Of a stretch of DNA of 23,689 bases, positions 4,044 to 23,689 are shown piece after piece. Numbering within the stretch: the first letter of the stretch is position 1; the number at the start of each line of letters is the position of its first letter. The notes beneath the pieces are model-generated. The model was not told the origin of the DNA. It did not search any database and saw only the letters and a list, made by a program, of their open reading frames with translations. Source of the DNA: a virus (taxonomy: Duplodnaviria; Heunggongvirae; Uroviricota; Caudoviricetes); IMG/VR virus record IMGVR_UViG_2698536618_000024, positions 1 to 23,689 of that record. One strand, 5' to 3'. The position numbers were made by a program, and so were the translations under genes.

Positions 4044-4078
4044 ATTGCAGAGACCATTCAATGAGTGGTCTCTGCAAT
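4044..4078. repeat. 13-bp perfect inverted repeat with 9-bp spacer
   Basis: ATTGCAGAGACCA (4044-4056) / TGGTCTCTGCAAT (4066-4078), read directly; ~65 bp upstream of the ORF starting at 4142. Confidence 0.7.
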
Positions 4079-4141: not shown

Positions 4142-4384
4142 ATGGCAGAGATTATTCCCATGACTGAAGAACAGAAATTCCAGTTAGAGATTTACAAGCT
4201 GGTCATGAACCAGAACGCAGCCGCAGAGGAAGCATTTCAGTTCATTGGCACTGACGAACTGAAGCTTGAGCTATTCAAAATTCACTTCCAGTCAGGTGGT
4301 GCTAATTCGGATATCACGATCCGCACATTCGAAGCGGTGCGTAAATCGAAGGAAGCGTTAGACCTGTTTACTACCGGAGCATGA
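4142..4384 (+). CDS. Hypothetical small acidic protein (80 aa) upstream of terminase
   Basis: Clean ORF with GGAG-type RBS context, protein-like helical composition; same position and size as the small orf80 that I recall preceding gene 3 in P22; no function recognised. Confidence 0.55.
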   Translation: MAEIIPMTEEQKFQLEIYKLVMNQNAAAEEAFQFIGTDELKLELFKIHFQSGGANSDITIRTFEAVRKSKEALDLFTTGA

Positions 4385-10920: not shown

Positions 10921-11109
10921 ATGGCACGAACAATGCTCTATAAGCCTGGCAACATGATCACCTGTGGTCAGTTTGCTGTCGATTACATCATTGTTGATGA
11001 CGAAGAAGTTAAATCTCACCTGAAAAAAGGTTGGGTAAAAACTCCTGAAGAAACCGCAACGAAGCAAAAAGTGGCTAAGGCGGAAGAAGATGGCGAAAAC
11101 GAAGGGTGA
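10921..11109 (+). CDS. Hypothetical small protein (62 aa) between coat and gp4
   Basis: ATG 10921 preceded by GGGAGAAG; the ORF-track start at 10882 lies inside the terminator hairpin and is rejected; corresponds positionally to the small gene I recall between coat and gp4 homologues in Sf6-like phages. Confidence 0.45.
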   Translation: MARTMLYKPGNMITCGQFAVDYIIVDDEEVKSHLKKGWVKTPEETATKQKVAKAEEDGENEG

Positions 11110-18685: not shown

Positions 18686-19051
18686 ATGAAAAAAGTTAAC
18701 ATTGGAAACGTACCAAAAATGCTCGTTCCGCTCTTTGAGAGCGGTACAATTGTGTTTTGCAGAGACTTTCCAGAATGGCAACGCCTGCATCAAAAACTTG
18801 GCGTGGACGTGCAGGACTCGGATGCCAACGGAGCGTCTCATACAATGAGCAGCGAGAATGGTGTTTTGCATGTGATAGGTGTGTTCAATGGCAAACTATC
18901 TACTATTGCCCATGAGTGCGCTCACATGGCATTCGATATCTGCTCAAGGGTCGGCGTTGATGTTGAACCAGGAAGAGCCAACGAGACTTACTGCTACTTA
19001 ATGAGCAGGCTTGTTGAGTTCTGCGAGCGACATATCAAAAAGCCGGAGTGA
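18686..19051 (+). CDS. Hypothetical protein with HEXXH zinc-binding-type motif (about 121 aa)
   Basis: Translation contains STIAHECAHMAFD (HEXXH at nt 18910-18924) in a hydrophobic context typical of zincin active-site helices; start at ATG 18686 to avoid overlap with the divergent secreted-protein gene; family not identified. Confidence 0.5.
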   Translation: MKKVNIGNVPKMLVPLFESGTIVFCRDFPEWQRLHQKLGVDVQDSDANGASHTMSSENGVLHVIGVFNGKLSTIAHECAHMAFDICSRVGVDVEPGRANETYCYLMSRLVEFCERHIKKPE

Positions 19052-19058
19052 ACCGGCT
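19036..19058 (-). terminator. Intrinsic terminator for the minus-strand small gene, overlapping the 3' end of the HEXXH gene
   Basis: AGCCGG-AGTGAA-CCGGCT hairpin (19041-19058); the A-run 19036-19040 on the plus strand gives a U-run after the stem on the minus strand. Confidence 0.4.
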
Positions 19059-19064
19059 TGATTA

Positions 19065-19335: not shown

Positions 19336-19358
19336 ACCCACCGTCAGGTGGTTTTTTT
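19336..19358 (+). terminator. Rho-independent terminator (first of two in tandem upstream of tailspike)
   Basis: CCACC-GTCA-GGTGG (19338-19351) followed by TTTTTTT 19352-19358. Confidence 0.5.
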
Positions 19359-21358: not shown

Positions 21359-22468
21359 ATGAATAATAAAGGCAATATAATTCAAAGTCTTACATCGTTG
21401 AGAATGTTTGCAGCCCTTGGTGTTTTCGTTAGTCACCTTGGGTTATTATCTCAATCATCTATTGGCATGTTTAATACTGCGGCAAAGTATTTTTTTAACG
21501 GTTACATAGGTGTAACGTTTTTCTACATTCTTTCAGGTTTCATTATAAACTATAGCTTCACAAATCATATAAAAAAAGAGAGATTTAGCAATAAAGATTT
21601 TATTGTATACAGGATTGCAAGAATATTCCCTGTGCATATAGTGGCGCTTATTTGTTTTATTTTAATATTTATGCATGGTAAGGGTATTGATGGTATTAAT
21701 AATGGAGTGCTTATTTCAAATATATTATTACTACAATCATTTATTCCATTACAGGATTATTACTTTTCCTTTAATTCCGTTTCATGGAGCATCTCATGTG
21801 AGATGTTTTTCTACGTTGCATTTTGCTTATTAACAAGGCTAAAGACAAAGCATTTAACTTGTGTGCTGTTATTTGTGCTTGCGATTAATTTTTATTATTT
21901 AATTAATCCACCATCAGCTATATCACAGCATTGGTTGTTTTATATAAATCCATCATTTAGAATTGGCGATTTCATTATAGGAATGCTGATCTGTAGGGTG
22001 TTTATTAATAGTGATGTAAAAATCAACTATACTGTTTGCAGTATACTTGAGATCGCATCGGTGTTGTCATTGTTTTTGACAATATATGTAGCAACAAACT
22101 ATATCACATATATGAACATAAAATATGATGTTCTATATATCCCTTGCATGGCGTTTATAGTTATTGCATTTGCTTTTAATGGTGGCGTCTTATCTAAGAT
22201 ACTTAAAAATAGATTTATGGTTTTGCTTGGTGAGGCCTCTTTCTCATTTTACATTTTCCATTGGATGATAATACAGGTAATAACTAAGATATTAAACCCT
22301 GACACTGATAATTTGTATGAGATGTTAATGTATATAGCATTTTCTTTATTGGTTTCTATTATTGTATCAATAATCTCATTCAAGGTTATAGAAGTGCCTT
22401 CAAATAAAATAATAAGAGGTTATTGGAGAAAGTTTAGAGGTGATAAATTAACTGCGAAGTGTAGTTAG
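21359..22468 (+). CDS. Integral-membrane acyltransferase family 3 protein; candidate O-antigen acetyltransferase (Oac-like serotype-conversion gene)
   Basis: 369 aa, hydrophobic multi-pass throughout, N-terminal region SLRMFAALGVFVSHLG typical of acyltransferase-3 proteins, strongly AT-rich; sits between tailspike and int, the position I recall for oac in Sf6 and gtrABC in P22. Confidence 0.75.
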   Translation: MNNKGNIIQSLTSLRMFAALGVFVSHLGLLSQSSIGMFNTAAKYFFNGYIGVTFFYILSGFIINYSFTNHIKKERFSNKDFIVYRIARIFPVHIVALICFILIFMHGKGIDGINNGVLISNILLLQSFIPLQDYYFSFNSVSWSISCEMFFYVAFCLLTRLKTKHLTCVLLFVLAINFYYLINPPSAISQHWLFYINPSFRIGDFIIGMLICRVFINSDVKINYTVCSILEIASVLSLFLTIYVATNYITYMNIKYDVLYIPCMAFIVIAFAFNGGVLSKILKNRFMVLLGEASFSFYIFHWMIIQVITKILNPDTDNLYEMLMYIAFSLLVSIIVSIISFKVIEVPSNKIIRGYWRKFRGDKLTAKCS

Positions 22469-22516
22469 AGTTATTTTATAGTTCCTCTTGGTTATTTTAT
22501 TGCAAATATATTTAAT

Positions 22517-22550
22517 TGATGAAAAGGTGGATCACTCCACCTTTTCATCA
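22517..22550. repeat. 15-bp perfect palindrome overlapping the integrase stop codon
   Basis: TGATGAAAAGGTGGA (22517-22531) - TCAC - TCCACCTTTTCATCA (22536-22550); the int stop (TGA on minus, 22532-22534) lies in the loop. Confidence 0.7.
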
Positions 22551-23689
22551 AGCCAATCCGCCCACCACTGCATCATTTCTCTGCGCTTATCGAGATACTG
22601 AGCATGGTTGTAAATTCCGCGCACAGATCCGCCGTTGGCATGTGCCAGTTGCACTTCAATAGCGTCGGCAGGCCATTCGTGCTCGTTCATAATCGTGCTG
22701 AATTCATGTCTGAATCCGTGACCGCTTTCCAGACCCTCATAGCCGATTTGTTTGATCACAAGCAATACCGCGTTCTCGCAGATTGGCTTCTTCTTATCGT
22801 TGCGCCCGGCAAAAACAAACTCTGATACTTGTTTAGTGATTGAGCTTAGTGTAGTGAGAAGTTCAACCACCTGGTCTGACATCGGGACCACATGAATTTT
22901 GCGTCCCTTCATCACATTGGCGTCAATGGTGATAATCCTGTTTTCAAAATCGACGTTCTTCCATTGCATGGAACGAAGCTCTTTCGTTCTTAGGGCTGTA
23001 TAGCGTAAAACCTTGGTGGCAATGAGCGATACGATACTTCCTGAAAATGTTGCCAGTGCTTTGTTGAATGCCGGGATCTGGTCTGCAGGTAAAAACGGGA
23101 AGTTCTTCTTGCGGTATCCCTTCATGGCGTCAGCAAGGTCAGGTGCCGGGTTATATTTAGCCCTTCCTGTGACAATAGCGTAACGAAAAACCTCGCCGCA
23201 TCTTCTGCGGGCTTTATTGGCTCGTTCCATTGCACCGCGATCTTCAAATCTGCGGATTACTTCCAGCAGTTGCATCGGCTCTATATCCTGAATCTCAAGA
23301 CCGCCGATGATGGGCAAAATGTCGTCATCAAACATTTTGGCAAGTTCAGTTGCATAGCCTACTGACCAGACTTGCTTCTTGTGCTCGTACCATTCCTTGT
23401 AAATGGCGCTAAAGGAATTGTTGTTAGACGAAGCCTTTTTCGCTTTTACCGGATCGATGCCAACCGAGATGTCTTTCCTCGCGGTCCATGCTTTATCTCT
23501 TGCCTCCTGCAAAGTCATTAGCGGATATTTTCCGACGGTCAGGATTTTCTCCTTACCGTCAATCTTGTAGCGAAGCTGCCATACCTTTTTCCCTGATACA
23601 GGGACATAAAGGTACAGGCCATTACCATCGAGTAGGCGGTATGGTTTTTCTTTCGGCTTAGCTGCTTCAATCTGCTTAACGGTGAGCAT
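22532..23689 (-). CDS. int: Tyrosine integrase (P4-type arm-binding N-terminus)
   Basis: 385 aa; N-terminus MLTVKQIEAAKPKEKPYRLLDGNGLYLYV typical of P4-family integrases; C-terminal HGFRHEF and GIYNHAQY boxes fit the tyrosine recombinase H-x-x-R...Y motifs; start codon is the last 3 nt of the window, so a longer N-terminus cannot be excluded. Confidence 0.9.
   Translation of the reverse strand: MLTVKQIEAAKPKEKPYRLLDGNGLYLYVPVSGKKVWQLRYKIDGKEKILTVGKYPLMTLQEARDKAWTARKDISVGIDPVKAKKASSNNNSFSAIYKEWYEHKKQVWSVGYATELAKMFDDDILPIIGGLEIQDIEPMQLLEVIRRFEDRGAMERANKARRRCGEVFRYAIVTGRAKYNPAPDLADAMKGYRKKNFPFLPADQIPAFNKALATFSGSIVSLIATKVLRYTALRTKELRSMQWKNVDFENRIITIDANVMKGRKIHVVPMSDQVVELLTTLSSITKQVSEFVFAGRNDKKKPICENAVLLVIKQIGYEGLESGHGFRHEFSTIMNEHEWPADAIEVQLAHANGGSVRGIYNHAQYLDKRREMMQWWADWLDEKVE

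Follow-up and report, generated by a model that had tools for sequence, protein, structure and literature searches.

The acyltransferase gene oac and the integrase gene int face each other across a short gap in the stretch of prophage DNA analysed here (23,689 nucleotides in all, hereafter the window), and a perfect inverted repeat lies over the int stop codon. The question raised by this locus is what that palindrome is for. A preliminary description of the sequence had offered three readings: a bidirectional terminator for the two convergent genes, a recombinase- or IHF-type binding site, or a part of attP, which was expected near the 3' end of int. The explanation that we find best overall, and consider rather probable, is that the palindrome is a bidirectional terminator of oac and int located at a module seam, and that attP lies upstream of int.

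The prophage is P22-like and is integrated at the tRNA gene argW; the window takes in its right-hand part and breaks off at the int start codon. A 201-aa ORF has its ATG at window position 1, and the last base (23689) falls on the int ATG; with both limits on ATGs, the window has the look of a provirus pared back to the limits of its genes. The phage also carries two neighbouring tRNA genes, tRNA-Asn(GTT) at 2031–2105 and tRNA-Thr(TGT) at 2111–2186.

The oac–int junction

The features of the junction, in window coordinates, are as follows.

21359–22468, + strand: acyltransferase gene oac (369 aa, Acyl_transf_3; Pfam PF01757, E 5.7e-26)
22469–22531: oac–int gap, 63 bp, AT-rich, present only together with this acyltransferase cassette
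22516–22531: left arm of the inverted repeat, TTGATGAAAAGGTGGA, 16 nt (coordinates read from the window)
22532–22535: spacer or loop TCAC, 4 nt, in which TCA (22532–22534) is the int stop codon (TGA on the − strand)
22536–22551: right arm of the inverted repeat, TCCACCTTTTCATCAA, 16 nt, coding for the int C-terminus (..LDEKVE)
22532–23689, − strand: IntS-type tyrosine integrase gene int (385 aa; identified by ORF, Pfam and nucleotide comparison)

The oac gene is a cassette between the tailspike gene and int and is convergent with int, whose product carries an Arm-DNA-bind_3 domain (Pfam) at its N-terminus. The 63-bp spacing described previously was borne out, oac ending at 22468 and int at 22532. 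At the nucleotide level oac is 84.6% identical to the O-acetyltransferase gene of TL-2011b as far as window position 22444. This likeness ends eight codons ahead of the stop. Neither E. coli genomes nor phage records yielded another source for 22445–22523, which comprises the last oac codons and most of the gap, and a search of species-representative genomes brought up only distant relatives of oac (27–31% identity). The gap also contains a perfect 10-nt direct repeat, GTTATTTTAT, at 22470–22479 and 22491–22500 (starts 21 nt apart), which may be a matter of chance in AT-rich DNA and which bears no likeness to the argW core or to the GGGTAAAA arm motif considered below.

The two arms of the palindrome are 100% complementary over 16 nt each, with 4 nt between them. 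A perfect inverted repeat had indeed been noted at this position, but with arms of 15 bp; the repeat is real, and its right arm reaches 22551, so that the arm length is 16. The int stop codon lies within it, in the 4-nt loop, as described, and the last five int codons make up the right arm. The left arm is composite, the inner 8 nt (22524–22531) being common to other IntS phages and the outer 8 nt (22516–22523) being specific to the oac–int junction. The palindrome is not a chance occurrence, since it is the longest perfect hairpin-type repeat in the window and, out of 200 random sequences of window length generated by a first-order Markov model, not one reached 16 bp. The second-longest such repeat, at 4044–4078 (13-nt arms ATTGCAGAGACCA/TGGTCTCTGCAAT, 9-nt loop), is found in a region without an ORF of at least 90 aa, upstream of a possible small ORF starting near 4144.

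Folding of both strands, a check that had been proposed with the original observation, gave a strong predicted RNA hairpin in each: −24.1 kcal/mol for the + strand (z −8.5 against dinucleotide shuffles) and −25.0 kcal/mol for the − strand (z −6.9). A comparison with Rfam returned nothing at or above the gathering score at the palindrome, the only matches being generic miRNA-precursor hairpins (17–20 bits against the 50–75 required, E 0.15–0.9). Extrusion of the palindrome as a cruciform was set aside by inference, because convergent transcription puts positive supercoiling between oac and int, and this disfavours extrusion.

Location of attP

The integrase gene belongs to the IntS/argW recombination module of the KplE1–HK620–Sf6–CUS-3 type, in which attP is upstream of int. 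Its DNA is 95–97% identical to the integrase genes of HK620, Sf6, CUS-3, N7 and many other phages, and the likeness to the KplE1 (CPS-53)/HK620/Sf6/CUS-3 module extends to the Pfam domains, to an argW gene beside yfdC, to the core sequence, to GGGTAAAA-like arm repeats between the core and the int ATG, and to torI at the other prophage end. The module integrates into argW by way of a 16-nt core, CTGCAGGGGACACCAT, and its intS promoter overlaps attL (PMC2951348). In the HK620 and Sf6 records the attP core is placed some 160 bp ahead of the int start codon, within hkaB/gene 17, and the CUS-3 record has the attL core at the same place.

A contig (L117) carries the exact IntS protein and is 100% identical to the window in DNA sequence over the 161 nt compared (22440–22600). 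Its gene order is mlaA, yfdC, tRNA-Arg(CCU) argW, int, acyltransferase and tailspike; between the end of the core CTGCAGGGGACACCAT and the int ATG there are 160 nt, and argW lies 162 nt upstream of int. Repeats of the IntS arm type, which resemble GGGTAAAA and contain TAAA, are found just upstream of int both in L117, where they follow the core, and in HK620. In the complete lysogen NZ_CP151038 the core lies at the 3' end of argW, with a second copy, containing one mismatch, beside torI some 46 kb off; the tailspike, acyltransferase and intS genes are inside this prophage. The same three genes are contiguous beside argW in lysogens, and oac and int are not split by integration.

These comparisons show that the attP/attL core lies upstream of int, just outside the window at about 161–176 nt past its end, and that no part of the oac–int gap belongs to it. 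The window, whose last base belongs to the int ATG, stops about 161 nt short of attL. A search of the window for the argW core (CTGCAGGGGACACCAT/ATGGTGTCCCCTGCAG) gave no match with up to three mismatches allowed. It was thus correct that no sequence like a tRNA 3' end could be recognized, ATGGTGTCCCCTGCAG having no match at that tolerance. The suggestion that the palindrome might be part of an attP at the 3' end of int is refuted by a core about 160 nt upstream of int, and the other location that had been envisaged, beyond the int 5' end and outside the window, is the one found in L117, HK620, Sf6 and CUS-3. This corrects, for phages of this group, the expectation that attP adjoins the 3' end of int. 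A stretch of the gap, GTTCCTCTTGGTTA, that by eye resembles the 5' end of argW was dropped from consideration, the true core being at the 3' end of argW and outside the window.

Could the palindrome nevertheless be a DNA site for a protein, whether an IntS core-type, IHF or regulator site, or belong to an attachment site, primary or secondary? Dimeric DNA-binding proteins typically have sites of perfect dyad symmetry, and an attachment site here would have agreed with the original expectation for attP, but we regard this possibility as extremely improbable. The real core and arm-type sites are upstream of int; the palindrome resembles neither the core nor the GGGTAAAA motif, the sole window copy of which is at 11033; and the IHF consensus WATCAANNNNTTR has no match on either strand of the window. 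With the IHF consensus, core-like sequence and the GGGTAAAA motif all lacking near the palindrome, the recombinase- or IHF-type reading finds no support. Tyrosine-recombinase cores have an overlap of 6–8 bp, which a 4-nt spacer does not fit, and oac and int are still adjacent in lysogens. Moreover, half of the palindrome codes for protein, and this half is the same across the IntS family whatever adjoins it. The palindrome is no part of the KplE1/HK620/Sf6/CUS-3 module: it starts where similarity to the module stops, 8 nt past the int stop.

Comparison with other IntS 3' flanks

Flanking sequences were sorted from 95 IMG/VR stretches with the exact int 3' end, together with phage and E. coli loci. 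Among about 105 alignments to other IntS loci, 88 start at window position 22524, that is, 8 nt past the int stop. Read in the int sense, the stop codon in most IntS phages is followed by UCCACCUU, which forms an 8-bp mini-palindrome with AAGGUGGA; next come AACCACUAUCGAA and a stem that is conserved and roughly 14 bp long, CACAAAGCCUUGCA/UGCAAAGCUUUGUG. The typical flank accordingly reads TCCACCTT+AACCACTATCG... and then the 14-bp hairpin. This conserved hairpin, CACAAAGCCTTGCA-ATCCAG-TGCAAAGCTTTGTG, about 25 nt after the stop, is present in most IntS phages and in CPS-53 of K-12 (at about 1–35 in the HK620 locus L001, at 1525–1565 in the K-12 locus L108 and in columns 61–96 of the flank alignment), and the HK620 record (AF335538) labels it 'terminator for prophage excision transcript', i.e. 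for the int transcript. The window is without it and has the 63-bp gap and the acyltransferase cassette in its place. Comparison thus shows that the cassette replaced the conserved hairpin. The HK620-type hairpin and the palindrome are alike in being directly downstream of, or at, the IntS stop, where both would presumably end int transcripts; they differ in that the former has an imperfect stem of about 14 bp (CACAAAGCCTTGCA/TGCAAAGCTTTGTG) some 25 nt past the stop, whereas the window has an unrelated, perfect 16-bp stem spanning it.

The 16-bp form was found only where int adjoins the oac cassette. Besides the window and L117, these cases are three argW lysogens with an intact int, and three further loci plus one IMG/VR contig in which the intact palindrome stands beside int remnants of 84–131 nt. 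Lysogens with the junction include E. coli 19KM2326N, GPEC349-628 and GPEC1176 and the ERR175738 strain. A 100-nt junction probe detected the junction in 6 of 5,426 complete E. coli genomes, and a search of IMG/VR with the acyltransferase yielded one further copy, as well as cassettes of the TL-2011b type. No intermediate form of the palindrome was found in the acyltransferase searches of species-representative genomes and IMG/VR.

All eight copies of the 16-bp form are identical, so that its covariation cannot be assessed. In the wider IntS family, explicit pair counts show the mini-palindrome to be 95% paired with no compensatory changes, and the K-12 copy is degenerate. The conserved 14-bp hairpin is 81% paired; because its covariation is no higher than in shuffles, we do not claim structure-driven evolution. 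RNAalifold applied to 65 IntS 3' flanks returned trivial structure only, inside the coding part. Three E. coli matches (H32–H34) with seeming similarity back to 22496 proved to be ordinary flanks of the 8-bp type with a stretched alignment.

Anatomy and context of a candidate terminator

The bidirectional-terminator reading is the best supported of the three originally offered, and it is anatomy and context that speak for it: a hairpin on both strands, a core stem followed by a T-tract, and terminators at related positions elsewhere. Judged by its sequence, the palindrome is most likely an ordinary two-way intrinsic terminator candidate between facing genes. Two overlapping terminator-like units can be delimited within it.

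22526–22549, + strand: unit in the oac direction, with core stem GGTGGA/TCCACC (22526–22541) and T-tract TTTTCATC (22542–22549)
22518–22541, − strand: unit in the int direction, GGTGGA-GTGA-TCCACC followed by TTTTCATC (complement of 22518–22525)

Given the perfect dyad, the RNA is the same from either strand: the A-tract GAUGAAAA, a GGUGGA-loop-UCCACC stem and then UUUUCAUC. The core, 6 bp with four G–C pairs, has a predicted stability of −8.0 kcal/mol in the oac direction and −8.9 kcal/mol in the int direction. On both strands the U-tract UUUUCAUC (5 U in 8) follows this core stem, and none follows the full 16-bp stem; the tract is short, interrupted and base-paired within the full stem, and the G+C core extends to only 6 bp. 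The int direction owes its T-tract to the junction-specific outer 8 nt (22516–22523), typical IntS phages having UUAACCAC in its place. The palindrome was not called in a terminator consensus scan of the window. Examined by script, the core stem nevertheless conforms on both strands to the scan's own stem and 5-of-8-T rule, and the scan probably passes over it because it scores the longest stem, here the full 16 bp, and then looks for T's.

The position of the palindrome also suits a terminator. No other strong structure follows the oac stop, with or before it, and the arrangement of oac (+) and int (−), convergent, 63 bp apart and with a single perfect dyad, fits the stem-loop layout of convergent pairs. 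Stem-loops between convergent E. coli genes are presented as a prevalent class of bidirectional terminator in bioRxiv 10.1101/2022.10.23.513370, which cites Ju et al. (2019). As portrayed there, those terminators share with the present locus, a candidate, a convergent pair, a short gap and one symmetric stem-loop; they differ in that here one arm is in coding sequence with the stop codon in the loop.

Hairpins are usual at this place in the IntS family, 68 of the 77 distinct 3' flanks having, within about 100 nt, one with a folding energy of −12 kcal/mol or lower, and in one cassette (L080) a canonical terminator is set directly against the int mini-palindrome. The terminator of the homologous acyltransferase gene in Stx phage TL-2011b likewise consists of A-tract, stem and T-tract, and its hairpin starts some 50 nt past the stop codon. 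It is unlike the palindrome in being canonical, G+C-rich (AAACAGGCAACCCCA...TGGGGTTGCCTGTTTTC) and unrelated in sequence, the two cassettes diverging from window position 22444. Finally, two hairpins upstream of the tailspike gene, at 19040–19059 and 19338–19351, were called terminator-like on both strands and lie between convergent/divergent genes, showing that candidate two-way terminators are used elsewhere in this phage.

Proposed working of the junction

Our working hypothesis is that the palindrome serves mainly, and probably, as the terminator of oac. For this it is well placed: 47 nt separate the oac stop from the outer stem, which therefore stays out of reach of ribosomes. Termination at this point would keep readthrough from oac and the late operon from running antisense into int, so that the palindrome would act as an insulator.

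The int direction is different. The 5' arm of the hairpin consists of the last 16 coding nucleotides of int, with the stop codon in the loop, and the structure is not clear of the terminating ribosome. Because the upstream arm is coding sequence, a ribosome at the stop codon should block folding and would probably suppress termination. A comparable effect is described in PMC4824070, in which the terminator tR2, when placed a few bp after a translated gene, was almost fully repressed. In the int direction the palindrome may be a weak, translation-sensitive terminator at best, or a 3'-end barrier that forms after transcription.

Since the ribosome should suppress termination, a post-transcriptional role is retained as the alternative for the int direction. 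The hairpin could be an element of the int mRNA, either a 3' stem-loop that blocks 3'–5' exonucleases and stabilizes the message, or a double-stranded RNase III target, like lambda sib, that destabilizes readthrough int transcripts. The stop codon in the loop, a stem that is predicted to form in int-sense RNA at −25 kcal/mol, and the expected suppression of co-transcriptional termination by the ribosome (PMC4824070) would all accord with such an element. It also recalls the lambda tI/sib retroregulator, in which an integrase mRNA likewise has a stem-loop at its 3' end. As an account of the palindrome as a whole, however, we consider it very unlikely. Lambda sib acts as it does since attP separates it from int in the prophage: sib and int are on opposite sides of attP, and integration parts them. 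The window hairpin, unlike sib, stays joined to int in phage and prophage alike, and for this reason it cannot tell the two states apart. RNase III usually needs about two helical turns, and a perfect 16-bp stem, shorter than that of sib, is short for this enzyme. In addition, most IntS phages have only 8 bp at the stop codon.

Taken as a terminator, the palindrome provides a concrete candidate for the end of the transcript of a serotype-converting acyltransferase cassette, and an example in which insertion of a cassette would have removed a gene's usual terminator and left a replacement hairpin at the seam. Beyond annotation this matters little.

Origin of the palindrome

The palindrome sits at the seam of the IntS integrase module and the inserted acyltransferase cassette. 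We suggest that its 8-nt extension arose when a nascent strand folded back on the pre-existing mini-palindrome and copied its own other arm. A copying event is the most plausible origin, rather than point mutations, because an unrelated flank would complete eight pairs by chance only about once in 65,000 (4^-8). Derivation from an inverted IntS remnant is less likely, the known remnants being 66–140 nt long as against a symmetry that stops sharply at 16 nt. If proven, a fold-back origin would supply a mechanism for new module junctions in mosaic phages, a modest point.

An origin of this kind raises the possibility that the palindrome is a neutral scar of cassette joining, left by fold-back or template switching on the 8-bp mini-palindrome and without selected function, in which case the ends of oac and int transcripts would lie elsewhere, or would be set by Rho or by colliding polymerases. 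Few genomes carry the junction, which seems to have arisen once (identical copies in 6 of 5,426 E. coli genomes), and the same figure of about 4^-8 points to a copying mechanism and not to selection on point changes. The lack of compensatory substitutions in the family mini-palindrome and the silence of the terminator scan at the palindrome are likewise what a neutral scar would lead one to expect. Against this, a hairpin of −24 to −25 kcal/mol with a U-tract on both strands stands where related cassettes have terminators, and the palindrome has been kept intact in three contexts in which int is truncated to 84–131 nt. An origin as a scar is, besides, compatible with present use as a terminator. 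We therefore think it possible, though doubtful, that the palindrome is a scar and nothing else, and prefer the bidirectional terminator.

A further reading goes beyond termination. The mini-palindrome at the IntS stop might be a recurrent seam for cassette exchange, and the 16-bp form the footprint of the fold-back that captured the acyltransferase cassette, the site being then a hotspot of DNA-level recombination as well as a terminator. Many independent junction types fall within 0–10 nt of the IntS stop. We think this reading unlikely, and leave it open because junctions cluster at 0–10 nt, IntS remnants share one start base, and the extension is complete at 8 of 8 positions, for which the chance is about 1 in 65,000. 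If it were true, the hairpin at the int 3' end would shape phage mosaicism.

The remnants are pieces of the IntS 3' end, 66–140 nt long, that occur in phages and prophages with other integrases, among them Sf101, mEp234, Stx2 phage 1717 and prophages at torT and paoD, and all begin 8 nt past the old stop (equivalent to window 22524–22662). They were located at 4233–4316 in L103, at 4233–4364 in L102 and at about 2201–2269 in L105, L106 and L107, and their recurrent inner break points correspond to window positions 22589/22592, 22616–22620 and 22662. The remnant in L103 abuts a lambda/HK022-like attP arm.
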